Source: Oscillospiraceae bacterium (GTDB lineage Bacteria > Bacillota > Clostridia > Oscillospirales > Ruminococcaceae). Taken from it: a stretch of DNA of 64,000 nt. The stretch spans positions 1 through 64,000 of the forward strand of contig JAZUJW010000034.1 in the NCBI GenBank assembly GCA_045642925.1, read 5' to 3'. Position numbers and translations under genes: made by a program. The notes beneath the pieces were generated by a model. The model had not been told where the DNA came from. It did no database searches and saw only the letters and a program-made list of their open reading frames with translations. Of this stretch, positions 1-60,352 are shown in pieces. Numbering within the stretch: the first letter of the stretch is position 1; every line of letters starts with the position of its first letter.

Positions 1-225
1 GGCAGCGCCCCTGGTCGCCGACCGCAGTCGGCGAAACTCCCTGATTCGTTGTAAGGAAACAGGGGTGTTTCGCGCTCTGCGGAGCGCGACCAGGGGCGCT
101 GCCCCTGGACTCTGCCAAAGGGAATGATTCCCTTTGGAATCCTCAATAAAAGAACCGCCAACATTTTTGCAAAAAATCGAGTAAAACTTTCATTTCGCTT
201 CGCGTGCATAGCCGCTTTTGTCGGG
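1..225. repeat. Copy A of the nested-palindromic intergenic repeat family, truncated by the window edge. It has a 16-bp outer stem (cagcgcccctggtcgc / gcgaccaggggcgctg) enclosing two inner hairpins (gccgac-cgca-gtcggc; cgcgctc-tgcg-gagcgcg). It also carries the palindrome ccaaagggaatgattccctttgg and the tail aaaaaatcgagtaaaactttcatttcgcttcgcgtgcatagcc.
   Basis: Direct reading of reverse-complementary segments. Near-identical modules recur at 11670-11950, 13776-13990 and 54339-54660, and partially at 6583-6654. Confidence 0.8.
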
Positions 226-235
226 TACTGCATGA

Positions 236-1078
236 TTAATCATGTAATGGCGCCGCCTCCACAGACTCCATGTGTCGCTGTGCCACAAAATATACCACAA
301 CCTGCGGCACCATCGCCGCCGCACAGATACTCAATACCCGATTCCACGCAAACCCACTGTCCGCATCCATCGACAACTTGATGAATACCGACAACGGATA
401 CCGCATCGGCGTTTTTACATACAACAACGGCCCCATATAATCATTCACCGTCCACAAAAGCTGCAATGTCCCACACGAACACAAAACAGGCTTCAGCATC
501 GGCACCAGCACATACCACAGCGTTTGCAGCGAATTGCATCCGTCCAGCTTCGCCGCATCATCGTAACTGCGCGGTATCCCCCGCATAAACTGCATCACCG
601 CAACCACAAACACCGCATCCCCAGCCAGCGCCGCAGGCACGATCAACGGCAAATACCATGGCGAATCTATCCAGCCCAAACGATGAAATTCCACAAACTG
701 CGGCACATACAACACCGTCTGCGGCAAAAATATCGTCGCAAACAGCAGTGCCATCAGAAATTTCTTGCCGATAAACGAAAACCGCGCAAATCCATAAGCC
801 GTCAGCGTCACAGAACAAAGCGTCAGCAACACCTTCGGAATCGCAAATGCATATGTGTTTCCCATCGCACGCAAAAGATGCATCTGCCCGCCATACACCG
901 CAAATGCACTGCGCCAGCCTTCCAGCGTCGGAGAATGCGGCAAAAGGGATGCATTTGCAAAAATTTCACGATTACTGCGGAATGTCGCACTCAAAAGCCA
1001 CACAAGCGGATAAAGCATAATGCCAGCACCGACAATCAACACAGCATACCGCAAAAATATTCGCACCGCTTTTCTCAT
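236..1078 (-). CDS. Carbohydrate ABC transporter permease (MalG-like inner-membrane component)
   Basis: Polytopic membrane protein with an EAA-type motif (DDAAKLDGCNSLQTLWYVLVPMLKP). There is a 4-bp ATGA overlap with the upstream permease gene. Confidence 0.85.
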   Translation of the reverse strand: MRKAVRIFLRYAVLIVGAGIMLYPLVWLLSATFRSNREIFANASLLPHSPTLEGWRSAFAVYGGQMHLLRAMGNTYAFAIPKVLLTLCSVTLTAYGFARFSFIGKKFLMALLFATIFLPQTVLYVPQFVEFHRLGWIDSPWYLPLIVPAALAGDAVFVVAVMQFMRGIPRSYDDAAKLDGCNSLQTLWYVLVPMLKPVLCSCGTLQLLWTVNDYMGPLLYVKTPMRYPLSVFIKLSMDADSGFAWNRVLSICAAAMVPQVVVYFVAQRHMESVEAAPLHD

Positions 1079-1992: not shown

Positions 1993-3087
1993 TCAGCATA
2001 CTTCGCGGCACTGACGCATCGCTTTTTCCGTCCGCAGCCGTTCTGCATAAGCACACATCCATGCCCCGACACCCTTCGGGTCATTGTCTGCAATCGGTTC
2101 GGACAGATAGTAGGCATTGCTTCCATCGCGGCATCGTGTGCCGCCCAAGCCTGCCGCACTGCATATGTCATGCAGCTTTCCGTCCGAAAACTTCGTGCGT
2201 TCGATGGTTTCCAGCATTTCCAGTCCGATTCGGCGCTCATCTGACGAAAAAACGCCCAGTTCAGCGCCGCGCAGAAGCGTGTAGGCAATCATGCAGTTGC
2301 CTGACGTTTCGATGTAGTTGCCGTCCATATGCGGGCGGTCAATGACCTGACAGAGCAAGCCGTTTTCCGCACGATATCCAAGCAGATGTGTCATGGCATC
2401 ACACAGCATCTCGCTGAGTTCCCGCCGCAGTGCATTTTGTGCGGGCGGCAGAAGCGCAAGCGTATCGACCAGCGCCATCAACAGCCATCCTTCCCCGCGC
2501 AGCCAGAATGTCGAAGAAAGCCCCGTCTGCGGATTTGCCCAGATCTGCGTTCGGGTTTCATCCATGCCGTGGTAGTAGAGTCCGCTTTCTGCATCCTGCA
2601 TTTGCTTTTGCACATAGGCAAACCGCATTCGGATATCATCATAAAACAAAGCATTTTCAGCGAAATTTGCATATTCCGCAAGAAATGGCTCTGACATATA
2701 CAGTCCGTCAATCCAGATTTGTTCAGGGTAGATCTGCTTGTGCCAGCAAAGACCGCTTCGCGTGCGCGGATGTGCCGCAAGCTGGGCAGTCTGCCAGTCC
2801 AGCGCTTTGCGGTAGCGCAGTTCGTGCGTCAGTTCATACGCAAAAAACAGCGCCTTGCTGCAATGGAAACTGTCCAGACTATGTGCATCCGTCGGGTAGC
2901 TTGGGAGCGTTCCGTCCGCCATGACACGCGGAGAAAGATAGTTCAGGACAAAATCGGCATAAAAGCGTTCTTTTTCAACCGCATACAATCTGCGGCATCC
3001 CATCAGCACACAGCCGTCCTCATAATTCCAATAATTCTTGAACGGCTGATATTCATTCAGGTATTGCTGAAAAAATTGTTCCGACAT
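1993..3087 (-). CDS. Unsaturated rhamnogalacturonyl/glucuronyl hydrolase (glycoside hydrolase family 105/88-like), cytoplasmic
   Basis: About 360 aa with no signal peptide and a YteR/YesR-like alpha6/alpha6-barrel sequence signature. The RBS gggagaaa lies 7 nt upstream of ATG 3087. It is embedded in the sugar ABC operon. Confidence 0.6.
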   Translation of the reverse strand: MSEQFFQQYLNEYQPFKNYWNYEDGCVLMGCRRLYAVEKERFYADFVLNYLSPRVMADGTLPSYPTDAHSLDSFHCSKALFFAYELTHELRYRKALDWQTAQLAAHPRTRSGLCWHKQIYPEQIWIDGLYMSEPFLAEYANFAENALFYDDIRMRFAYVQKQMQDAESGLYYHGMDETRTQIWANPQTGLSSTFWLRGEGWLLMALVDTLALLPPAQNALRRELSEMLCDAMTHLLGYRAENGLLCQVIDRPHMDGNYIETSGNCMIAYTLLRGAELGVFSSDERRIGLEMLETIERTKFSDGKLHDICSAAGLGGTRCRDGSNAYYLSEPIADNDPKGVGAWMCAYAERLRTEKAMRQCREVC

Positions 3088-4382
3088 AATGTTTCTCCCG
3101 CAAGGACAGTCTGAATTCCGACATACAGTCGTTCTGCCGCTTGAGAAACCGAATAATCACCATAGCTGAGTCCCGTGAACACGTCCTCGTAGACACCGTT
3201 CACGCCTTTGAGTGCTGCATTTTCAAAATCGGATTGCATTTGGAAGCAGTTCCACGCCTGCATACGGCGATTTGCTTCCGCGGTCATGTCCCCAAACAGT
3301 CCCGCCTCGTCACAGATTTGATAAGCTGCATGATTCAGCGGCACGCCGCGCTCTGTACCGAGCGTTTTGACGGCAGATTCCGCTTGCAGCAGATATTGTA
3401 TCAGCATCGCACAGGCATCGGGCGACTGCGTGTGCTTGGAAATGGCGAATCCAAGAGCAATTTTAGAAAATCCGCCGTGGTATGCACCGAGGTCTGTGAA
3501 GTAGTCGCCCACCGTGAGGGCTTGCCCATCCGCAAGTGCATCCTGAAATTTGCCGGCAGAGGAATCCCATTCGAAAATCCCTGCATAGCGCCCTTCGATC
3601 CAGTTTTCGTCTTTGTCGAAGCTATCCGCACCGCCGTCTGCAATTTTTGAAAGCGGCGGAATGACATGATTTTTTTCCATGTCATCCAGCATGGCGAGTC
3701 CTGCGGCAAGTTCTTCCTGCGAATATTGCAGTTTGCCGTCTGCCGTCCACTCACGCCCGTACTGTGATTGCAGCAGATACACCAAAAACAGCATTCGGTC
3801 ATACCAACCGAGTGCCAGTGGATAATATGCATCGCCAAGCTGCGACTGAAAGACCGTACCCGCCGCCTGCAAATCAGCAAAGGAAGCAGGGATATCCAGT
3901 CCAGCCGCCGCAAACGTGTCTGCATTCCAGAAAAATACACGTCCTGTCATGCTCACAGGCAGACAGCAGAGCGCATCGTCTACAGTACAAAGCGACAGCG
4001 CATCCGTGTCATACTGGGCTAAATCAAGAAATTCCGTCATTTCATTCAGGTCAAGGAAACCGCTTTGCGCCGAAGTGAAATCGGCAAGCCAATTCTGGTT
4101 GACTTGCAGGACATCCGCCTCGGTTTCAGCATATACGGCGGCGGCGGTCGCTTCCTCCCACCCATTCCAAGCGCCGTACTCGCACTCCACACGGATTTCG
4201 GGATGCTCCGCCATAAACTGTGAAACTGCATTCATGGTTGCACGATGTCTTGCGTCCCCGCCCCACCACGAAAAACGAATCATCGTTTGTGCAGGATCCG
4301 GCGTTTGCGCACAGCCCATGCAGGAGAGCATGGATGCAGCCAATGCAGCAGCCATGCAAGCCGCCCCCAAACGTCTACGCAT
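3057..4382 (-). CDS. Extracellular solute-binding lipoprotein (sugar ABC transporter substrate-binding protein, family 1)
   Basis: N-terminal signal peptide with a lipobox (LSCMGC) and the typical SBP_bac_1 motif (IRFSWWGGDARH). It is the first gene of the minus-strand operon. Its 3' end overlaps the GH105 start by 31 bp. Confidence 0.8.
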   Translation of the reverse strand: MRRRLGAACMAAALAASMLSCMGCAQTPDPAQTMIRFSWWGGDARHRATMNAVSQFMAEHPEIRVECEYGAWNGWEEATAAAVYAETEADVLQVNQNWLADFTSAQSGFLDLNEMTEFLDLAQYDTDALSLCTVDDALCCLPVSMTGRVFFWNADTFAAAGLDIPASFADLQAAGTVFQSQLGDAYYPLALGWYDRMLFLVYLLQSQYGREWTADGKLQYSQEELAAGLAMLDDMEKNHVIPPLSKIADGGADSFDKDENWIEGRYAGIFEWDSSAGKFQDALADGQALTVGDYFTDLGAYHGGFSKIALGFAISKHTQSPDACAMLIQYLLQAESAVKTLGTERGVPLNHAAYQICDEAGLFGDMTAEANRRMQAWNCFQMQSDFENAALKGVNGVYEDVFTGLSYGDYSVSQAAERLYVGIQTVLAGETLCRNNFFSNT

Positions 4383-4670: not shown

Positions 4671-4699
4671 TTGACATGCGCAAAAGAATTGATTATAAT
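4671..4699 (+). promoter_or_regulatory. Consensus sigma-A promoter (TTGACA - 17 nt - TATAAT) driving the dockerin/LRR gene
   Basis: TTGACA at 4671-4676, a 17-nt spacer and TATAAT at 4694-4699, about 45 nt upstream of ATG 4745, within an AT-rich 300-bp intergenic region. Confidence 0.7.
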
Positions 4700-4744
4700 A
4701 TAATCGATGCATCAAACAATACACAATTAGGAGTGAAAATTACA

Positions 4745-6505
4745 ATGAATATTATGAAAAAAGCAGCAACCGCTGCCCTCGCGCTCACTTTGACCATGAG
4801 CGCAGCCGTCAGCACCGTAGACAGCCTTTCCGCTATTAAAGCATCCGCTTTCTATTCGAAGGGCTATTCCATGATGAGCATTCGTCAGAACTGGACACAG
4901 TTCCAGAATGAAGAAATGGCAAAGTTCCCCCAGACCAAAAACGGCAAGCAGTGCTATTGGAACAGCGGCAATCCCAATTCTTATACCCAGACTGCAAACG
5001 GTGCAAAAGACAATTCCTTCACCGCTCCGTTCCAATATTTTGATGGTTCTACCTTCAAATTCTCTGATAACCGCTATATCGTAGGTGTCATGGAGCCGAC
5101 AGACGGTTTTGCTGCAAAGCTGCAGTCCGACCTCTTCCAGACTCCGTTCATGGCACGTACCGAAATTTCCAGTTGTCAGTACACTGCCGTAGACGGCAAG
5201 AAATACCTCTATGAGCCGCGTATCGGTGACGTTGTCAGCATTACCGTTGGCAACAGATACTATTCTGTTTTCGTCACATATGTCAGCGGCAACACCGTAA
5301 AAGTTACTTACTGCGATGGCAACAACAGCTGTGCAATCCACTGGAATGTCAGCTCGATTGACGGCAAAACCATCACAACTGCATACTTGCAGAGCTATGC
5401 TGACTGGTTCGACCGTCCTCTGACCTGCGGCGACCTGAACCTTGACAACAAGATCACCTCTGCCGATGCAACGATTTTCGACACCACAATGGGTACTTAC
5501 GGCAACACCATCGGCGATTGCCCGCGTGCTGTATACGATGTCAACAACGACAACAGAGTTGACGAGAAGGACAGCAATGCAATCCGTTACACCAGCAGCA
5601 TCGAGACAATTCCGATCGCACAGGATGACGTTACCTCTTATCGTTGGAATGAGATGGATTCCAATGGCTTCCGTTTCTCTGACGGCAGCTACTACATCAA
5701 GAATTCCAGCGGCGGTGTTACCTTCCTTGGTTTGAGCGATTCGACCGTGAAGAACTACACCATGATGAGCCGTGTATACAACAGCAACGACAAGAAGTAT
5801 TATGATGTTACTGAAATCGGCTATTCCGGTCTGAGAGGCCCGTCGAATTCGGCACTGAAGAATATTTCGACGCTGACGATCGCTCCTACCGTAAAGAAGA
5901 TCAACAGCTATGCATTCTACAACTGCAACCTGACCGAACTGAAGATTCCGACGAACTCGGAACTGACATACATTGACAACTACGCTTTCAATGGCGCTCA
6001 CGTTTCGAAGCTTGACCTCTCTAGCGCAACCAAGCTGACCTCTGTTGGTACTTATGTATTTGCCAACAACACCTCTCTGATCAATCTGACACTGCCGTAC
6101 AGCCTGGTATCTCTCAATACCGGTGCTTGCTCCAACTGCAACCAGCTGACGCAGGTAACAGTAATGGGTGACAGATATCATTATTCTCCTCTGAAGGAGA
6201 TCGGCAACTATGCATTTGAAGGCTGCACGCAGCTCAGACGCATTGACCTGCCGAACAACAACGGCACACTGAAGCTTGGTTTGAGTGCAGCGACATTCTC
6301 CAGCAATCCGATGAATGTCTGCACGCTGTATCTGCCGAATGATACTGGTACGGCAAGAACCATCGTGCTGAGAGGCAATGATGTGACGCTGTTCAAGAAC
6401 AGAAAGCTTCTGATCAACTGTGGCAGATGCATCATCAAGGATCAGTACGGCAATGAACTTGGCCGCAACAATTCCATCAGCAACACCACAGTTACCCCTC
6501 GATAA
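4745..6505 (+). CDS. Secreted cellulosomal protein with an N-terminal CHAP-like (possibly inactive) domain, a central type-I dockerin and C-terminal BspA-type leucine-rich repeats
   Basis: A signal peptide (MNIMKKAATAALALTLTMSAAVS) follows the RBS aggagtg. The dockerin Ca-binding repeats GDLNLDNKITSADATIF and YDVNNDNRVDEKDSNAIRY lie at about 5427-5600. LRRs (LTELKIP...YIDNYAFNG...) lie at about 5850-6400. It is a paralogue of the 13992-15782 gene. The start was moved from ORF-track 4676 to the first ATG behind a good RBS. Confidence 0.75.
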   Translation: MNIMKKAATAALALTLTMSAAVSTVDSLSAIKASAFYSKGYSMMSIRQNWTQFQNEEMAKFPQTKNGKQCYWNSGNPNSYTQTANGAKDNSFTAPFQYFDGSTFKFSDNRYIVGVMEPTDGFAAKLQSDLFQTPFMARTEISSCQYTAVDGKKYLYEPRIGDVVSITVGNRYYSVFVTYVSGNTVKVTYCDGNNSCAIHWNVSSIDGKTITTAYLQSYADWFDRPLTCGDLNLDNKITSADATIFDTTMGTYGNTIGDCPRAVYDVNNDNRVDEKDSNAIRYTSSIETIPIAQDDVTSYRWNEMDSNGFRFSDGSYYIKNSSGGVTFLGLSDSTVKNYTMMSRVYNSNDKKYYDVTEIGYSGLRGPSNSALKNISTLTIAPTVKKINSYAFYNCNLTELKIPTNSELTYIDNYAFNGAHVSKLDLSSATKLTSVGTYVFANNTSLINLTLPYSLVSLNTGACSNCNQLTQVTVMGDRYHYSPLKEIGNYAFEGCTQLRRIDLPNNNGTLKLGLSAATFSSNPMNVCTLYLPNDTGTARTIVLRGNDVTLFKNRKLLINCGRCIIKDQYGNELGRNNSISNTTVTPR

Positions 6506-6523
6506 TCGCGTAAAATGATGAAG

Positions 6524-6555
6524 GCCTGCCGCAAAAGCGGCAGGCTTTCTGTTAT
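6524..6555 (+). terminator. Rho-independent terminator after the dockerin/LRR gene
   Basis: Hairpin gcctgccgc-aaaa-gcggcaggc followed by TTTCT. Confidence 0.7.
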
Positions 6556-6582: not shown

Positions 6583-6654
6583 AGAATTGATTCCCTTTGG
6601 AATCCTCATGATGGGGCGCGGGATATGCTTTCCATTTCCTTTGGAATCATTACG
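6583..6654. repeat. Partial copy of the repeat-family module (gattccctttggaatcctc ... tttcctttggaatcatt)
   Basis: Shares the ccctttggaatcctc module with copies at 121-146 and 54339-54375. Confidence 0.5.
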
Positions 6655-6659
6655 AAAAA

Positions 6660-6695
6660 CCCGCCGTCATTTCTATGACAGCGGGTTTTCATTAC
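6660..6695. terminator. Probable bidirectional terminator hairpin between convergent genes
   Basis: Hairpin cccgccgtcat-ttct-atgacagcggg flanked by A-run / T-run (aaaaac ... ttttc). Confidence 0.5.
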
Positions 6696-9962: not shown

Positions 9963-10136
9963 GTGAATAATCTTCCTTTCTGTTCACAGATTTGCCTATA
10001 CATTTGTTTCGTGGGCATCTGTGTGTATCTGTGTGTATGCACTTCGTTATTATAACACATACTTTCGAAATTTGCAACATATTTTTGAGTATTCGCGGCA
10101 TTTTTTTGATTTTTCAGTTTTTTGGGAGGTTGCGGC

Positions 10137-11669
10137 ATGAAAAAACGGCAGTCCATACTGGGCGGTTCTCTGCTTCTGATGGCATCGGCGGCGGCGGCAA
10201 AACTGCTTGGAGCAATGTTCCGCATTCCGCTGACGGCAATGCTCGGCGGGGAAGGAATGGGATATTTTTCCAGTGCATACGGGCTTTTTCTCCCCATATT
10301 CTCTCTTGCGGTAACAGGCATGAATACTGCGCTCGCGGCAATGACCGCACGATTGCTTTCAGCGGCACGTTTCGGCGATGCAGTCCGACTGCGCAGGAGC
10401 GCTCTGCGATGGTTCGGGGCAATCGGACTTTGCGGCGGCGGCTTGTTATATCTTTTCTCCGAACCAATTTGCAGATATGTACTGCACAATGCAGGTGCGG
10501 TAACGGCAGTGCGGTGCTTTGCCCCTGCAATTTTCTTCTGCTGCATCAATGCGGGGCTGCGTGGTGCGCACGAGGGACAGCAAAATATGCTGCCGACGGC
10601 AGTTTCACAAATGACAGAGGGCATTGCGCGGCTGGTTTGCGGGCTATGGTTCTGCGGATATGTACTGCGGCATTCCGAGACACTCTGTACGGCGCTGGGG
10701 GCATCGACTGCGCAGGCAGCGGCGGCTGCTGCCATTCTGGGCGTGACGTGTTCGGTGGCAGTCGGCACAGGAACACTGCTGTGCTTCCCTTTGCCGCATG
10801 CAAACGGCACAAAAGAGCATACTTCCTCTGCACATTTGCTGCGGGCACTTTTACGGCTTCTGATACCCGTTTCGGCAACGGCGCTGGTCACGAACCTTAC
10901 CTCGGTCATTGACCTTGTGACAGGAATGCGTGGACTGGCGCAATTTTCGGATACTGCGCGAGCAAATTTCCTATATGGCGCATTTTCGGGGCTGGCGGTG
11001 ACGGTCTTCGGGCTGGTGCCGTCCGTGACCAATATGCTTGGAAAAGGCGCATTACCGGCGTTTTCAGAAGCATATACGCGGCAGGATAAAAAAGCGATGA
11101 AACAGCATTTGTGGGAAGCGCTGTATCCGACGGCATTGCTTGCGGTTCCTGCGGGACTGGGCATGGCGGCGATGCCTGCGCCGATTTTGATGCTGTTATT
11201 TTCGAGCCGCATGGAGGAAGTGAGCGTGGCGGCGGCACCGCTGGCGATACTGGGGATTGCGGTGATACCGCTGGCGCTGTCGTTTCCGCTGATGAGTATG
11301 CTGCAAGCGGCAGATGCGGCGGGAAGTACGGCAGTGGGGATGTTGTTGGGGGCTGGTGTGAAGCTGGTAAGCAATCTGGTACTGATACCGCGCATGGGGC
11401 TGTGTGGGATGGCGGTATCGACATTGATTTGCGATGGAATTGTGATGGGATACTATATGATTGCGGTGAAGCGCAAAATCGGGATAAAAGTGCGGATGAG
11501 GCGCATTTGCGGTATACCGATGTTGATGGGCGGGCTGTGTGCGATGGGGGCGCGGCTGACGTATATCAAGGTACATAGTACAATTGTTGCAATCATGGTA
11601 GGCGTACTGATATATTTTGCAGGTATTGTGAGTACACGCTCAACAGGAATCAAAAGGTTCTTTTATTGA
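10137..11669 (+). CDS. MOP-superfamily oligosaccharide flippase (polysaccharide biosynthesis protein, SpoVB/MurJ-like)
   Basis: About 14-TM protein with a typical N-terminus (LLGAMFRIPLTAMLGGEGMGYFSSAYGLF). The start was moved to ATG 10137 behind the RBS gggagg, because the ORF-track start at 10122 is TTG. Confidence 0.75.
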   Translation: MKKRQSILGGSLLLMASAAAAKLLGAMFRIPLTAMLGGEGMGYFSSAYGLFLPIFSLAVTGMNTALAAMTARLLSAARFGDAVRLRRSALRWFGAIGLCGGGLLYLFSEPICRYVLHNAGAVTAVRCFAPAIFFCCINAGLRGAHEGQQNMLPTAVSQMTEGIARLVCGLWFCGYVLRHSETLCTALGASTAQAAAAAAILGVTCSVAVGTGTLLCFPLPHANGTKEHTSSAHLLRALLRLLIPVSATALVTNLTSVIDLVTGMRGLAQFSDTARANFLYGAFSGLAVTVFGLVPSVTNMLGKGALPAFSEAYTRQDKKAMKQHLWEALYPTALLAVPAGLGMAAMPAPILMLLFSSRMEEVSVAAAPLAILGIAVIPLALSFPLMSMLQAADAAGSTAVGMLLGAGVKLVSNLVLIPRMGLCGMAVSTLICDGIVMGYYMIAVKRKIGIKVRMRRICGIPMLMGGLCAMGARLTYIKVHSTIVAIMVGVLIYFAGIVSTRSTGIKRFFY

Positions 11670-11950
11670 GGAGTCCAGGGGCAGCGCCCTTGGACGCCAA
11701 CAGACTGCAAGCAGTCTGCACCGCAGAGCGCGAAACTCCCTTTTCGTCCTATCTAATCAGGAAGGGGTTTCCCCTCGTGTCGTACCTAACATAAATAAAG
11801 AGAGGCAAGAGAACGGTTTAAACCATATCTCTTGCCACTTTGACTTTATAACGGGAACTGCATGGGGGAACCCCTCCTGATTCGTTGCAAGGAAACAGGG
11901 GTGTTTCGCGCTTCGCGTGCATAGCCGTCTTTGTTAGGTGGCTATTTATT
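11670..11950. repeat. Copy B of the repeat family: full-length MITE-like element of about 280 bp. Its terminal inverted repeats are ttcgtcct(a)tctaatcaggaagggg ... cccctcctgattcgttgcaaggaaac. Internal hairpins are cagactg-caag-cagtctg and ggcaagaga...tctcttgcc.
   Basis: Direct reading. It is about 85% identical to copy E (54339-54660) and lies between convergent genes. Confidence 0.8.
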
Positions 11951-11967
11951 GAGAAGCCCGGAAAAAA

Positions 11968-12687
11968 TTAATTCTCTCCGGATTCTTCATGCTGAACCGC
12001 AGCAATTTCATTCTGTTTCTTGGATGGATGTAGCCGCGACCACAATATAATGATCGCTTGCGCGGGTATCCCAATGTAAAATATCTTCCAGATATTGTAT
12101 GGCAAAAATGTAATGTACAATGATAACAAAACCGACCACACCAATATGGATATAATCACATAGTTCCACCTGCGATTAAACCATATCGAATTGAACACCA
12201 GCCATATCACTGCCGTCACCGGCAGCGCATACAAAAACGTCAACGGGGTATACTGCATATCAGGCGCAAAAATATCCAGTCCCACAAAACACGATGTCGC
12301 AATCAACCATATCAGCATCGCCGCTAAGCCCGCAATAATCGCTCGTGTCCGCTGTGATGCCTTCGCCTTCATCGGCTGCACCACATCCTCCATTGGCACT
12401 TCTTCCATCTGCAATCCTGCGTCCTCTACAGCAGCCTCCGCTGCCCCGTCTTCAGCAGCCCTCGCTTCACGCTCCTCTGCCGTCATCACCAAATCATCCA
12501 GTGATACATGATATAAGTCAGCAATTTTTTTTAACACAAAAATGTCGGGAAGCGACTCGCCCCTCTCCCATTTTGATACAGCTTTGTCCGAATAATGCAG
12601 CAGTTCAGCAAGCTGGAGCTGCGTATATTGATTCTCTTTTCGCAGTGCGGTCAGATTTTGAGCAACTGTTTTCTTAAATTGCTCCAC
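11968..12687 (-). CDS. XRE-family HTH transcriptional regulator with a C-terminal multi-pass membrane domain
   Basis: N-terminal HTH_XRE (QLAELLHYSDKAVSKWERGESLPDIFVLKKIADLYHVSLDDL), then a linker and 4-5 TM helices. The ORF track starts at GTG 12696, and GTG 12687 has better RBS spacing. Confidence 0.7.
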   Translation of the reverse strand: MEQFKKTVAQNLTALRKENQYTQLQLAELLHYSDKAVSKWERGESLPDIFVLKKIADLYHVSLDDLVMTAEEREARAAEDGAAEAAVEDAGLQMEEVPMEDVVQPMKAKASQRTRAIIAGLAAMLIWLIATSCFVGLDIFAPDMQYTPLTFLYALPVTAVIWLVFNSIWFNRRWNYVIISILVWSVLLSLYITFLPYNIWKIFYIGIPAQAIIILWSRLHPSKKQNEIAAVQHEESGEN

Positions 12688-12907
12688 TCGCCTCACTTCC
12701 TTTCTGTCTGTAACCTATTATAACACAAATCTCAAAAGAATGCAAGTACGAAATAAAAAATACTCTACCATGAGTAGAACTGTGTTTTTTGCAGTTCTAC
12801 TTCAACGATTCCAGCAGTTTCCTATAGAATCACAGAAGTATCGTGACAATGAATCCCGATTGCGTTACAATATTAATGCACAAGATTTTTGAAAGGAGTA
12901 TTGATAT

Positions 12908-13771
12908 ATGCACGAGAACTATGTGATTGTGACAGACAGCGCTTGTGACCTTTCGGAGGAAATGCTCGGACATATGGAAATCCCATTTGTATCGTTAAAT
13001 GTATTCATGAAGGATAATCCTGCATTCCCATGCAATCTGCGTGGGGCAGCATTCTATCAAGCGCTCCAAAGCGGGCAGGTCGCCTGCACTTCTGCGGCGA
13101 ATCTCTCATTGTTCCGCGACACCTTCACAAAAATTCTGAAACAGGGCAAAGATATTCTTTATCTTTCGTTTTCCTCGGCGCTCAGTTGTATGTGCGCGAC
13201 CGGAAGAATTGCGGCAGAAGAACTGATGGAAGAATTTCCGGAACGAAAAATTGTAGTAGTGGACTCTTTGAGTGCCAGTCACGGGCAGGGATTGCTGGTT
13301 TACTATGCTGCGCAGGAGAAGGCACACGGCATGAGGCTGGAGGAATTGGCAGCGTATCTGGAACAGCAGCGTCAGCGGACGATTCACTGGTTTACGGTAG
13401 ATGATTTGATGTATTTGCGGCGTGGCGGCAGAGTGAGCATGGCATCTGCAATGGCGGGGACGCTGCTGGGTATCAAGCCTGTAATGCATATGAATGCGGA
13501 AGGAAAGCTTGCGGTATGCAGTAAGGTACGTGGCAGAAGGGCGGCGATTCAGACGCTTGCCAAGCATTTTCATGAAGAATGTGAAGATGTAAATGCGCCT
13601 GTATATATTGGTCATGCGAATGCGCTTGCGGATGCAGAGATGCTGCGAGATATGATCCGGAATGAGAGTGGCGCAAAGCTGATAACGATTGGAGAAATTG
13701 GCGGTGTCATAGGGGCGCACACGGGGCCGGGGGCATTGTCGGTATTTTTCGTAGGAAAATCGCGCACATAA
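12908..13771 (+). CDS. DegV-family fatty-acid-binding protein
   Basis: 287 aa with a DegV signature N-terminus (YVIVTDSACDLSEEMLGHMEIPFVSLNV). The RBS aaaggag is present. Confidence 0.85.
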   Translation: MHENYVIVTDSACDLSEEMLGHMEIPFVSLNVFMKDNPAFPCNLRGAAFYQALQSGQVACTSAANLSLFRDTFTKILKQGKDILYLSFSSALSCMCATGRIAAEELMEEFPERKIVVVDSLSASHGQGLLVYYAAQEKAHGMRLEELAAYLEQQRQRTIHWFTVDDLMYLRRGGRVSMASAMAGTLLGIKPVMHMNAEGKLAVCSKVRGRRAAIQTLAKHFHEECEDVNAPVYIGHANALADAEMLRDMIRNESGAKLITIGEIGGVIGAHTGPGALSVFFVGKSRT

Positions 13772-13775
13772 TTAA

Positions 13776-13990
13776 AATGGCTACACCCGCGAAGCGAAAT
13801 GAAAGTTTTGCGGGGGCTTTTTCAAAAGCTTGCGAAGTCCAGAGACAGCGCCCCTGGTCGCCGACCGCAGTCGGCGAAACACCCTTTTTCGTCCTAACTA
13901 ATCAGGAGGGGGTATTTCGCGCTCTGCGGAGCGCGACCAGAGGCGCTGCCCCTGGACTCTGTGATTTTTTGAAAAAAATCGAGTAAAACT
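13776..13990. repeat. Copy D of the repeat family: the same 16-bp outer stem and two inner hairpins as copy A, flanked by cgcgaagcgaaatgaaagtttt (left) and aaaaaaatcgagtaaaactttt (right)
   Basis: Direct reading. It lies between the convergent degV and dockerin genes. Confidence 0.8.
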
Positions 13991-13991
13991 T

Positions 13992-15782
13992 TTACTTCTT
14001 GTCAGGCTGCAAAAGCTGTGTCTTCGATGTGCCGTTCTTCGCAACCGTATCCAGCTCAGCATCATGTACACTGTAATTTCCTGCAAAAATAACCAGCGTA
14101 CCTGCACGAAATGCCTCAATATCAGAATCACACAGAAATACACTTCTGTTTCGTGCCGTGTTATTATCCAGAAACAGCTTAACTTTATGCTCTGCATCCG
14201 TATCAAAAACGCCCTCATCCGTGCCAAGCATCAATGCCGAATAGGATGTCGGTATGTCTATGTGAATCAAACTCGTACAACCATAAAATGCACCGTCACC
14301 AATCGTGTTCAAACTGCAATTGCCGCTTTGCCGTGACTTCACTTCCATATATTTCATCGCAGAACATCCCTCAAAAGCATATTCTCCAATCGAAATAATA
14401 CTGTACGGCAAAACAATATCATCCACCACTGCATTGTATGCAAAAGCGGATACTCCAATTTGTTCCAGTACCTTGCAGCTGCTGAAATCAAAACAGTCTA
14501 CTGAACAACCGAAAAATGCATAATCTCCAATCGTTCGCAGCAACGGATCTTTTCCGCTGATTTTCAGAGAAGTGAGCGAACCATGCAGAAACGCATTGCT
14601 GTTGATCGTCTGCACCGTGTCAGGAATGGTCAGAACCTCTAAACCGCGCGTAAACCAACCATCACCATCAGGCGCACCAATAGCCGTCACAAGATATTCG
14701 CAGTTTCTCTCCTCCGAATATACGACAGACGGAATTTCATATTCGGTGACTTCAGAATCCGCCATACCAATGAATGCAGCGGTCTTTCCATCTACACACA
14801 AATAATATGCGCCATTTTCGTCAACAAAGCAATCTTCCGGCATCGTATGCCAACGACATGGCAAATCTTCCGAGGATGTGACAATCGGCATATCATCGGT
14901 CTTGGTCTTCGCAAGAAAACGAATGGCATTGTAGTCATCCATGTCAACAAAACCACTGCCGTCTACGTCATAGGGCGTGTTGCCGATATCACCGATGGCT
15001 GTGCCCTCCTGCCGCATGGTTTCCTCAAAAATCACAACATCCGATTCTGTGATGACACCATCAAGGTCAAGGTCGCCGACCAGCGCCGGACGGTCAAAAT
15101 AGTCTGCATTTTGTTGTAAATATTCTGTGGTTACGACATTGCCGCAGTAGGATACTGCATCCCAATCGACACCGCAAAAACCATCTGCGTTGCACTGCGC
15201 AAAAATAATATCATCACCGATAACATCGGTAATGAAAATGCTGTGCAGACCGCCGAATAATCTGACGACATCGCCCGCTTTCGGTTCGTATGGCAGACAT
15301 CTGCCGTCTGAGAGGGTATACGAACCTTCTTCGAGTGCATAACGGATAAATACATCTGTCCTGAACATATCCGATGCGAGTTGGTAAGCAAAGCCGATAC
15401 ATTGTCCATAAGTAGTGCGGGATTCATCTTGCATATCATTGACCAGTTCGTAGGCAGTATTATAATAGTTGCACTGTGGTAAAACGTATGTGCAGTAATC
15501 AATACCGTCTGTATCGTGTTGGCAAGGAGTCAAGGTGCAGCAATCTGGGTTATGACCGTTCCAATAGCACTGATTGCCGTCGATGGATTCAGGGAGTTTT
15601 CCCTGTTCCGCGGCGAGCATCGACTGCCAATTGGTCTGGATTTCGCTTAAGGAGTCCGCAGCAGCATTGAGGGAAATGGAGTCGGACTCATTTCGCGTCA
15701 GAAGGCTGATGGCGGTTGATACAGTGCCAGCCACTACCGCAAGTGACAGAACTGCACAAGCAACCTTTCGAAAATTTTTCAT
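13992..15782 (-). CDS. Secreted cellulosomal protein with an N-terminal CHAP-like cysteine-peptidase/amidase domain (Cys-His-Asn retained), a central type-I dockerin and C-terminal BspA-type LRRs
   Basis: Signal peptide plus the motifs NQCYWNG and GDVVRLFGGLHSIFITDV...AQCNADG, which resemble the CHAP consensus. The dockerin (GDLDLDGVITESDVVIF / YDVDGSGFVDMDDYNAIRF) lies at about 14900-15080, followed by LRRs. It is a paralogue of 4745-6505. The RBS gggagat is present. Confidence 0.7.
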   Translation of the reverse strand: MKNFRKVACAVLSLAVVAGTVSTAISLLTRNESDSISLNAAADSLSEIQTNWQSMLAAEQGKLPESIDGNQCYWNGHNPDCCTLTPCQHDTDGIDYCTYVLPQCNYYNTAYELVNDMQDESRTTYGQCIGFAYQLASDMFRTDVFIRYALEEGSYTLSDGRCLPYEPKAGDVVRLFGGLHSIFITDVIGDDIIFAQCNADGFCGVDWDAVSYCGNVVTTEYLQQNADYFDRPALVGDLDLDGVITESDVVIFEETMRQEGTAIGDIGNTPYDVDGSGFVDMDDYNAIRFLAKTKTDDMPIVTSSEDLPCRWHTMPEDCFVDENGAYYLCVDGKTAAFIGMADSEVTEYEIPSVVYSEERNCEYLVTAIGAPDGDGWFTRGLEVLTIPDTVQTINSNAFLHGSLTSLKISGKDPLLRTIGDYAFFGCSVDCFDFSSCKVLEQIGVSAFAYNAVVDDIVLPYSIISIGEYAFEGCSAMKYMEVKSRQSGNCSLNTIGDGAFYGCTSLIHIDIPTSYSALMLGTDEGVFDTDAEHKVKLFLDNNTARNRSVFLCDSDIEAFRAGTLVIFAGNYSVHDAELDTVAKNGTSKTQLLQPDKK

Positions 15783-16730: not shown

Positions 16731-17147
16731 ATGAAAAAAAGCGTATTTTGTGCCGTTTTGATTAGCGGCTGCCTGTTGATGGGATGCAATGAATCATCTT
16801 CGGTTCCGCAGGAGATGCAGTACATCAAGACGAGCGTATTCTATGACACGGTAATGGATATGTACAATAACCCCGACAATTATCTTGGCGGGAAATATCA
16901 TATGGTTGGAGAATTGACTTCTGTAACGGATGATAGTGGGGCAACATATTATTCGGTATGCGGAAACAGTCCGACAGACCGTGATGAACGAATTGGAATT
17001 GAATTGAAATACGATGATTTTTCAAATGTTTCGGTTGGAGATACGATCACGGTTGAGGGAACACTCGATACGGAGAAAGCAGAAGTCGAAGGCGAAGAAC
17101 ACGAACTCCTGATTTTGCGTGTAACGCTTTTGGAAAAGCGTGCATGA
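16731..17147 (+). CDS. Hypothetical lipoprotein
   Basis: Signal peptide with a lipobox (LLMGC). The RBS aaaaggag lies upstream of ATG 16731. Confidence 0.55.
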   Translation: MKKSVFCAVLISGCLLMGCNESSSVPQEMQYIKTSVFYDTVMDMYNNPDNYLGGKYHMVGELTSVTDDSGATYYSVCGNSPTDRDERIGIELKYDDFSNVSVGDTITVEGTLDTEKAEVEGEEHELLILRVTLLEKRA

Positions 17148-17177
17148 AAAATGTTCTGTGCACAATCATAAAAAAAT

Positions 17178-17240
17178 GAGGCAAGAGGATGGCATGATGC
17201 ATTCCTCTTGCCTCACTTTCGTTTTCGCAGGTTTTTTTCC
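17178..17240 (+). terminator. Rho-independent terminator with a perfect 12-bp stem (gaggcaagagga ... tcctcttgcctc) followed by a T-rich tract
   Basis: Direct reading. The stem sequence is related to the ggcaagaga/tctcttgcc hairpin module of the repeat family. Confidence 0.7.
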
Positions 17241-44235: not shown

Positions 44236-44308
44236 TGGAGCATACGGGATTCGAACCCGTGACCCCCACACTGCCAGTGTGGTGCGCTCCCAGCTGCGCT
44301 AATGCCCC
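44236..44308 (-). tRNA. tRNA-Ala (anticodon GGC)
   Basis: Hand-folded cloverleaf: acceptor stem GGGGCAT/ATGCTCC with the G3:U70 alanine identity pair, anticodon loop CTGGCAG, T-loop GGTTCGAATCC. The 3' CCA is not encoded. Confidence 0.85.
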
Positions 44309-52911: not shown

Positions 52912-52919
52912 AGCATTAA

Positions 52920-53034
52920 CCTTATCACGAGCGGCGGAGGAATGGGTCCTTTGAAGTCGCGGCAACCGCATTCCGCAGAATGCATGGTGCCAATTCCCAC
53001 GGGCAGATTGCAATACTGCACCGAAAGATGAGGA
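52920..53034 (+). ncRNA. SAM-I (S-box) riboswitch aptamer
   Basis: P1 strands ccttatc...gatgagg and conserved core segments (GAGCGGCGGAGGAATGGGTCC, CGGCAACC, GGTGCCAATTCC, GAAAGATGAGGA). It lies upstream of metK. Confidence 0.85.
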
Positions 53035-54303: not shown

Positions 54304-54338
54304 ATTTTCTTGATTTTCAAAAGAATTTGCGGCTAATT

Positions 54339-54660
54339 GATTGAGGATTCCAAAGGGAATCATTCCCTTTGGCGAAGACCAGAGGCAGCGCCTCCGGACG
54401 CCAACAGACTGCAAGCAGTCTGCACCGCAGTCGGCGAAATTCCCCATTTCGTCCTAACGAATCAGGAAGGGGTGAGGGGAAACCCTATTAAGGAGTTTCC
54501 CCTCGTGTCGTACCTGACATAAATAAAGGAAGGCAGGAAGAACGCTTCATATCGTTCTCTTGCCTTCCTTTGTATATCATGGGAACTGTATGGTGGAACC
54601 CCTCCTGATTCGTTGGACGAAAAAGGGTGTTTCGCGCTTCGCGGATGTAGCCGCTTTATG
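54339..54660. repeat. Copy E of the repeat family: a full-length MITE-like element of about 320 bp with the ccaaagggaatcattccctttgg palindrome, a cagactg-caag-cagtctg hairpin, 30-bp terminal inverted repeats and a central aaggaaggcaggaagaacg...cgttctcttgccttcctt hairpin
   Basis: About 85% identical to copy B. It lies between the convergent metK and 54656-55720 genes. Confidence 0.8.
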
Positions 54661-60261: not shown

Positions 60262-60352
60262 GGAGATGTATCGAAGTGGTCATAACGAGAACGACTCGAA
60301 ATCGTTTGGGCGGTAAAACGTCCCGTGGGTTCGAATCCCACCATCTCCGCCA
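60262..60352 (+). tRNA. tRNA-Ser (anticodon CGA), with encoded CCA
   Basis: Hand-folded: acceptor stem GGAGATG/CATCTCC, anticodon stem AACGA/TCGTT with loop CTCGAAA, long variable arm, T-loop GGTTCGAATCC, and a 3' GCCA. Confidence 0.85.

Follow-up and report, generated by a model that had tools for sequence, protein, structure and literature searches.

A hairpin-rich, MITE-like repeat family of gut Oscillospiraceae, probably mobilized by IS1182-type transposases

Several described systems come close to the repeats analyzed here. IS1272, an insertion sequence of the IS1182 family from Staphylococcus, targets inverted-repeat stem-loops downstream of genes, and palindromes are the targets of some IS1182 members; new IS1272 insertions replace the stem-loop, and no duplication is made (PMC5678879). 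BOX, RUP and SPRITE of the pneumococcus and the Correia elements of Neisseria are MITEs, SPRITE being terminator-like, and none of them is reported from Clostridia or tied to IS1182 in the review that covers them (PMC10969869). Long, variable target duplications of 8-514 bp are found with IS1549/IS1634, and duplications of 27-28 bp with the IS1202 subgroup (PMC2266710; bioRxiv 10.1101/2022.12.17.520857).

The repeats described below share features with each of these systems and differ from all of them. Intact copies carry the same terminal repeat, TCAGTCTGTCGAWAAAGT, as an IS1182-family element, and like IS1182/IS1272 elements they insert directly beside stem-loops downstream of genes. They encode no transposase, however, their internal sequence is unrelated, and the target hairpin, which IS1272 replaces, can here be duplicated (26-39 bp and longer). 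Like BOX, RUP, SPRITE and Correia, they are short, highly structured, non-coding intergenic repeats with a modular build that form clusters and nest in one another, but there is no sequence relation and the target duplications of those MITEs are short or none. With REP, BIME and REPIN they have in common extragenic GC-rich hairpins, compensated stems, inverted doublets and mosaic clusters at gene 3' ends; the unit here is larger, with three hairpins, target-site duplications (TSDs) and DDE-type termini. Long direct repeats flank the insertion as in IS1549/IS1634 and IS1202, but the transposase family is another one, and the duplication tracks hairpin extent instead of having a fixed or arbitrary length.

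The window, the whole stretch of 64,000 nucleotides that was analyzed from an Oscillospiraceae contig, contains five loci that share blocks of sequence: 1-225 (copy A), 6583-6654 (fragment F), 11643-11945 (copy B), 13776-14002 (copy D) and 54304-54655 (copy E). The initial annotation had described these blocks as near-identical, and the sharing was confirmed to be far above chance, with 5-6 occurrences of the core motifs compared to 0.0-0.1 expected from shuffles. The core 19-mer GGGTRTTTCGCGCTYYGCG occurs five times at up to two mismatches (four exact; 0.00 expected), and CAGCGCCYYYGGWCGCC six times (0.10 expected). The perfect hairpin CAGACTG-CAAG-CAGTCTG (copies B and E), the palindrome hpP, which reads CCAAAGGGAAT(G/C)ATTCCCTTTGG in copies A and E, and the tails lie where they had been placed. 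Copy B, originally delimited as 11670-11950, does contain the repeat but starts about 27 nt earlier. The parts of each copy are listed in Table 1.

Table 1. Repeat copies in the window and their parts. R1 is a covariance model of the ~97-nt core unit, run by cmsearch; a dot means that no strand is assigned.
Feature	Position	Strand	Basis and parts
Copy A, left unit of inverted doublet	1..45	+	R1 35.8 bits, model positions 53-97; cut by window start; hp2 and fully compensated hp1 variant GCCGAC-CGCA-GTCGGC
Copy A, right unit	59..213	-	R1 72.5 bits at 59-154, 73.0 bits at 59-200; hp1 70-89, hp2 90-108, extra palindrome hpP 115-137, linker 138-156, degenerate hp3 164-190, tail module CATTTCGCTTCGCGTGCATAGCC 191-213
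Fragment F	6583..6654	.	Two partial hpP/linker modules (6587-6608, 6632-6652)
Copy B, left unit	11643..11744	+	R1 24.2 bits, 32-nt insertion; linker 11656-11672, hp2 11675-11693, CAGACTG-CAAG-CAGTCTG 11701-11718, tail GCAGAGCGCGAAACTCCC 11723-11740
Copy B, remainder	11741..11926	.	Alignment with copy E (77% over 288 nt), inverted repeats; M1 left arm 11741-11767, central terminator-like hairpin 11800-11838, M1 right arm 11871-11901, truncated inverted unit fused directly to tail module 11902-11926
Copy D, left half	13776..13888	+	R1 71.9 bits; full unit 13792-13888; tail module (reverse complement) 13779-13801, hp3 13812-13833, hp2 13839-13857, hp1 variant 13858-13877
Copy D, central M1 module	13885..13909	.	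Orientation opposite to that of the corresponding segment in copy A
Copy D, right unit (best copy in the window)	13906..14002	-	R1 98.4 bits, E 1.7e-21; hp1 13917-13936, hp2 13937-13955, hp3 13963-13980
Copy E, left unit	54304..54448	+	R1 22.1 bits at 54333-54448, 30-nt insertion; degenerate hp3 54309-54323, hpP 54350-54372, hp2 54379-54397, inserted CAGACTG-CAAG-CAGTCTG 54405-54422
Copy E, remainder	54446..54652	.	Alignment with copy B, inverted repeats, DNA fold z = -11.7; M1 left arm 54446-54472, hpG 54476-54502, central terminator-like hairpin 54526-54570, M1 right arm 54599-54627, truncated inverted unit and tail module 54628-54652
Tail module containing CGCGAAGCG	191-213, 11909-11926, 13779-13801, 54635-54652		

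In copies A and D the core unit forms an inverted doublet; B and E are of composite make-up, with inserted and truncated parts. The 30-bp terminal inverted repeats initially assigned to B and E turned out to be 29 nt long and 76% complementary, and they are the internal module M1, not the element termini. Likewise, the 16-bp outer stem drawn for A and D arises if the two hp2 hairpins pair across the arms, which is one of the possible pairings; a local hp2 hairpin in each arm is favored because single units carry hp2 alone with compensatory changes. The arms of A and D match at 88% in forward orientation and the center only as its reverse complement, which would fit flipping or deletion inside a long palindrome. 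Copy A is also matched in inverted orientation by copy B (to 135-156; 22 nt, 95%) and copy E (to 86-173; 88 nt, 82%), and fragment F has an exact 21-nt match to 125-145 and an inverted one to 54342-54362. In copy B, hp1 is split by a 32-nt insert that contains the perfect hairpin.

All window copies lie between convergent gene 3' ends. Copy A neighbors a BPD_transp_1 (Pfam) gene, its right unit ending 23 nt before the stop of this minus-strand ABC permease gene (236..1078). Fragment F lies between an LRR/dockerin gene and an S4 gene and is bracketed by their own terminators (6520-6549 and 6655-6690); copy B lies between MurJ and HTH_3 genes, copy D between DegV and LRR_5 genes and copy E between MetK and Oxidored_FMN genes. 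Copy E begins immediately after the metK stop and ends 3 nt before that of the Oxidored_FMN gene, and the AAAAGTTTTAC end of the right unit of copy D extends over the stop codon of the LRR_5 gene, which is on the minus strand (13992..15782). A dockerin gene had been named as the second neighbor of copy D; degV was correct, but the LRR_5 gene has no dockerin match, and the dockerin match belongs to the gene at 4676-6505. Confinement to convergent ends, also claimed, holds in the window and not elsewhere, since in other genomes the contexts, by crude ORF calls, were 17 convergent, 25 tandem and 5 divergent. Only a spurious ORF of 69 aa spans copy D, and a simple terminator scan predicted no canonical terminator within copies A, B or D. 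The last codons and TGA stop (11656-11669) of the MurJ-like ORF (10122..11669) fall within the repeat sequence of copy B, and the MurJ orthologue of genome JAZRXM has a different C-terminal end (L103, about 4100-4113). Copy B has replaced the native MurJ C-terminus.

The core unit of ~97 nt has the order AAAGTTTT-N3, hp3 (loop TTTTCAAAA), linker, hp2, GTC, hp1 (GCGCTC-CGCA-GAGCGC, with the loop CGCA) and GAAAYACCC. It frequently occurs as an inverted doublet about the short M1 module, and hpG, hpP, a terminator-like hairpin and the CGCGAAGCG tail are joined to it. R1 detected 80 units in 94 sources, many of them in convergent doublets with spacers of 20-400 nt. A scan of the genome collection with the 19-mer found at least 93 loci, at least 55 of which extend into the repeat family; matches in GC-rich soil taxa were rejected as chance. 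The carriers, among the matches listed, are about 30 Oscillospiraceae, Ruminococcus and Clostridia gut genomes, comprising horse, rabbit, sheep, roe deer, mouse and human MAGs and Butyricicoccus pullicaecorum DSM 23266. In one horse-gut MAG the exact 19-mer is present at 17 loci or more. The elements of the horse MAG JAKSPL measure 200-470 nt. Same-strain contigs from short reads break off at the repeats. This bears out the original description of a genome-wide, interspersed, nested-palindromic and MITE-like family at gene 3' ends.

Phage and plasmid collections, searched by distant blastn, gave no match to the repeat family, and the IMG/VR scan yielded one real contig only (L109, UViG 2833239190_000002; four units in 12.6 kb), which probably belongs to the chromosome or a prophage in a Butyricicoccus-like genome. 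The initial statement that the sequence matches no nameable family stands: Rfam has no match, and the literature, searched by name and by sequence string, contained nothing on these repeats. IS1182 and Clostridia are absent from a 2024 review of prokaryotic MITEs. The family is a new, undescribed addition to bacterial MITEs, with unusual target behavior.

Comparison of filled and empty sites indicates that the repeat elements are mobile. At one locus of JAKSPL (L035), an element lies between an Rce1-like gene and a MIP gene in a gap of 355 nt. In a relative with flanks 86-87% identical (L104), the site is empty, with a gap of 59 nt and one terminator, and two more distant relatives (L105, L106) are also empty, with the same 59-nt gap and one terminator. 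The insert of 264-279 nt in L035 is made up of end, hpG, M1, unit and end, and the entire segment is missing from L104. It lies between direct copies of the 32-bp AAAAAGRGCATCCCTGAAATCCATCAGGGATG, 31/32 identical, which is a terminator hairpin with its T/A-tract. Both hairpin copies in L035 (5965-5996, 6261-6292) have the loop AAATCCA and the hairpins of the empty sites L104 (2573-2604) and L105 the loop TGAAGT, so the loop is wholly different between filled and empty alleles.

Other locus-specific flanking duplications measure 39, 49 and 78 bp at three loci in three genomes. Overall, TSD length ranges from 26 to 78 bp and obeys no single rule; hairpin plus 8 bp fits L035 and fails for L045 (78 bp) and L061. 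The duplication follows hairpin extent, with 26-39 bp for one hairpin and 78 bp for two. Sites of the window copies vary as well. The gap between the MurJ and XRE genes is 298 nt in the window (copy B), 221 nt in L107, where the copy points the other way, and 14 nt and 5 nt at the empty sites L103 (JAZRXM) and L108, respectively; the L107 copy has no clear hairpin duplication. Downstream of DegV, the window has the full doublet (copy D), L107 a plain terminator only and L103 a degenerate remnant. The metK locus was uninformative as an empty-site test because the relatives have another downstream gene. In L093, two family hairpin modules are present as a 116-nt direct duplication of 91% identity (4797-4911, 5120-5234) on either side of a 208-nt segment that bears a unit, which suggests that an insertion became nested in an older element.

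Intact copies in JAKSPL and L107 end in the 18-nt TCAGTCTGTCGAWAAAGT, which is the left end of an IS1182-family insertion sequence of 1.5-1.6 kb (1.51-1.59 kb) with the right end ...CGACAGACTGA. A metagenome scan with this 18-mer found at least 120 loci, at least 22 of them with a transposase of 432-443 aa, which scores 365.2 bits with NCBIfam NF033551 (IS1182 family; cutoff 270) and has the Pfam domains DUF772, DDE_Tnp_1_6 and DDE_Tnp_1. A hairpin, defined as a stem of at least 7 bp ending 0-3 nt before the terminus motif, abuts TCAGTCTGTCGAWAAAGT at 92 of 123 sites compared to 7 of 123 random positions, among the matches listed. Duplicated hairpins flank the IS copies in L152 (27 bp), L171 (26 bp) and L214; most complete IS copies have two different flanking hairpins, not a duplication. 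Elements bearing the unit next to the terminus were seen in JAKSPL, L107, L141 and L145, the last two being independent contigs with the three-hairpin unit beside the IS terminus; in L141 the terminus is at 3026-3043 and the unit starts at 3062.

The window copies had no match to the IS terminus within three mismatches, and the window encodes no IS1182 transposase. Therefore, the assignment of these copies rests on their shared internal modules. No transposase was found within 8-kb blocks around 55 genomic copies either. The polymorphic copy of L035 begins (G/T)TCGATT, without the outer 7 nt (TCAGTCT) of the IS terminus, and JAZRXM and other lineages have differing end sequences. Nine human-gut contigs (L126, L150, L165, L167, L170, L174, L182, L185, L225) represent one conserved locus in which a solo 18-nt IS terminus lies between ...cttataatagtata and the ORF start TCAGTCTGTCGAAAAAGTTWTTGTTTCTATAAAAGGAGAACTCATG, and lacks a hairpin upstream; it could have been fixed there as a remnant within a 5' leader. 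The terminus is shared by at least one further non-coding family, whose interior is ...GTCGCGCGGCAGCGCGCAT... (L111, L128, L143, L156, L169, L190, L199, L206-L208, L226), so this seems to be an IS with several MITE families.

We conclude that the five loci are probably decayed copies of a hairpin-rich, non-autonomous MITE family mobilized by IS1182-type transposases. The window copies would be relics without recognizable termini, of the same origin as the intact copies elsewhere. Most likely, an IS1182 DDE transposase moves the elements in trans, as is suggested by the termini that IS and elements have in common and by the way both lie next to hairpins and duplicate them whole. Both the IS and the MITEs insert immediately next to a GC hairpin, which is usually the intrinsic terminator that follows a gene, and can duplicate it in full as a long TSD. 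Targeting of this kind would put the elements at gene 3' ends, especially between convergent genes, and insertions would be tolerated because each neighboring gene retains a copy of a terminator. It would also explain the modular, nested look of the copies, since elements that are strings of hairpins would attract further insertions that duplicate their modules, as in L093.

Another possible explanation is that the units belong to the host's own repeats, mainly serve IS1182-type elements as landing pads and are not their cargo, the adjacent termini belonging to separate mini-elements. This would agree with the general targeting of hairpins by the IS terminus noted above, with the occurrence of TIR-loop-TIR mini-elements of 50-51 nt, and with the L093 duplication, in which family modules flank a unit. 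In B and E, moreover, hp1 is split by CAGACTG-CAAG-CAGTCTG, which resembles the abutted outer 7 nt of the right and left ends of the IS1182-type element, a likeness of 7 nt only that could be chance. However, the whole L035 segment is absent from L104 and is bounded by one duplication, which argues that the unit moved as cargo, and in L141 the unit starts 18 nt past the end of the terminus. For these reasons, we consider the landing-pad explanation unlikely.

The repeats could also be structured small RNAs, which the initial annotation regarded as equally possible, or cis-acting 3'-UTR elements under RNA-level selection for termination, protection from 3' exonucleases or protein binding. Covariation was strong in all three hairpins. 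In a MAFFT alignment, 91% of cells pair compared to about 45% with slid partners, and 117 cells are compensatory compared to 38 ± 5.6 in shuffles. The model alignment is biased in favor of the structure; in it, pairing reaches 96.8% of cells, and double-sided changes occur in 21 of the 24 pairs. Among 23 units without the search 19-mer, there are at least 10 different compensated hp1 stems with an invariant CGCA loop. Covariation of this strength in three helices across about 30 species would suit an RNA, as would single-strand folds far more stable than shuffles (z = -6.7 for copy D and -11.7 for copy E). In addition, units start at or a few nucleotides from stop codons and so are probably transcribed as 3' UTRs.

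The covariation is not of the RNA type, however. Of 1785 cells, 1706 are Watson-Crick, 22 G·T, 26 A·C and 31 of other kinds; G·U is not commoner than A·C or other mismatches. An early hint of the reverse strand, from a few A·C mismatches, disappeared in the complete count, which is symmetrical, and G·U pairs in MFE folds of the two strands are similar in number (61 and 74). Units occur in both orientations relative to the neighboring genes, and these genes, 150 flanking ORFs in 164 Pfam families, show no enrichment of a gene family or transposase. Rfam gave no repeat match at gathering or E-value thresholds, only chance miRNA matches with E about 1 (11600-14050). Almost purely Watson-Crick pairing, mixed orientation and the lack of an associated gene family or Rfam match make a one-strand RNA gene or a gene-specific cis-regulator unlikely. 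Presence and absence also differ between close relatives, with flanking duplications, and copies A, B and D lack a predicted canonical terminator. We therefore judge RNA-level selection very improbable; what is constrained is the DNA, or both of its strands. For annotation this is a warning: in multi-copy hairpin repeats, an RNA gene cannot be assumed from strong covariation alone.

DNA-level recognition would also be expected of REP/BIME- or REPIN-type repeats, the type to which the copies were first compared: palindromes that form hairpins in single-stranded DNA, are spread by RAYT (Y1/HUH) and serve the host as terminators or mRNA stabilizers. Watson-Crick-only pairing suits such recognition, the repeats are extragenic and in high copy number, their GC-rich hairpins show compensatory changes with a conserved flank and loop, the frequent inverted doublets look like REPINs and the mosaic clusters look like BIMEs. 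In the strict sense, the comparison was not supported. Insertions carry TSDs of 32-78 bp, and HUH/IS200-type insertion is not known to make any; intact copies bear the termini of a DDE element of the IS1182 family; the unit of ~97 nt has three hairpins, whereas a REP has 20-40 nt and a GTAG-type head; and no Y1 (RAYT) transposase was present in the best 25 of the 164 families from the 150 flanking ORFs. The chance that these are REP-type repeats is very slim.

Integron attC sites, which the doublets presumably resemble, were dropped because there are no R boxes, the ends AAAGTTTTAC ... GTAAAACTTT do not fit R''/R' cores (RYYYAAC ... GTTRRRY) and the copies are dispersed, not arrayed, and type I-C CRISPR repeats, which we take GTCGCGCTCCGCAGAGCGCGAAAC to resemble, because there are no arrays and no conserved 3' handle.

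Mobilization by IS1182-type transposases, the preferred explanation, does not alone explain why a MITE keeps a conserved and compensated internal core across genera. Tentatively, we suggest that these transposases might capture their targets by structure and that the three-hairpin core might be a selected module. Recognition of an extruded hairpin or cruciform, followed by cuts to its left and right, would duplicate the entire hairpin, formally like the duplication of repeats by Cas1 integrases. The core would supply terminator-like hairpins, which render insertions neutral, and a landing pad that seeds nested clusters. Selection on such a module would account for an internal segment kept with compensatory changes over about 30 species.

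Oscillospiraceae are major gut and rumen bacteria whose genomes are mostly fragmented MAGs, and this family breaks short-read assemblies and fills many intergenic regions. It can also rewrite gene 3' ends, copy B supplying the MurJ stop codon. The poorly understood IS1182 family is linked here to a testable target rule, insertion beside terminator hairpins with frequent duplication of the hairpin, for which natural donors, empty sites and a cultivable carrier, B. pullicaecorum DSM 23266, are now in hand.

Some further observations were made in the window. An ordinary bidirectional terminator at 17170-17227, after a gene ending at 17147, has a stem, GAGGCAAGAGGA...TCCTCTTGCCTC, like the central hairpins of B and E, and the centers of these copies may be captured terminators. 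The CGCGAAGCG motif of the tail module includes GCGAAGC, known as an unusually stable DNA mini-hairpin. Upstream of metK there is a SAM riboswitch (52919-53034, 79 bits), and tRNA genes are located at 44236-44308 (-) and 60262-60349 (+).
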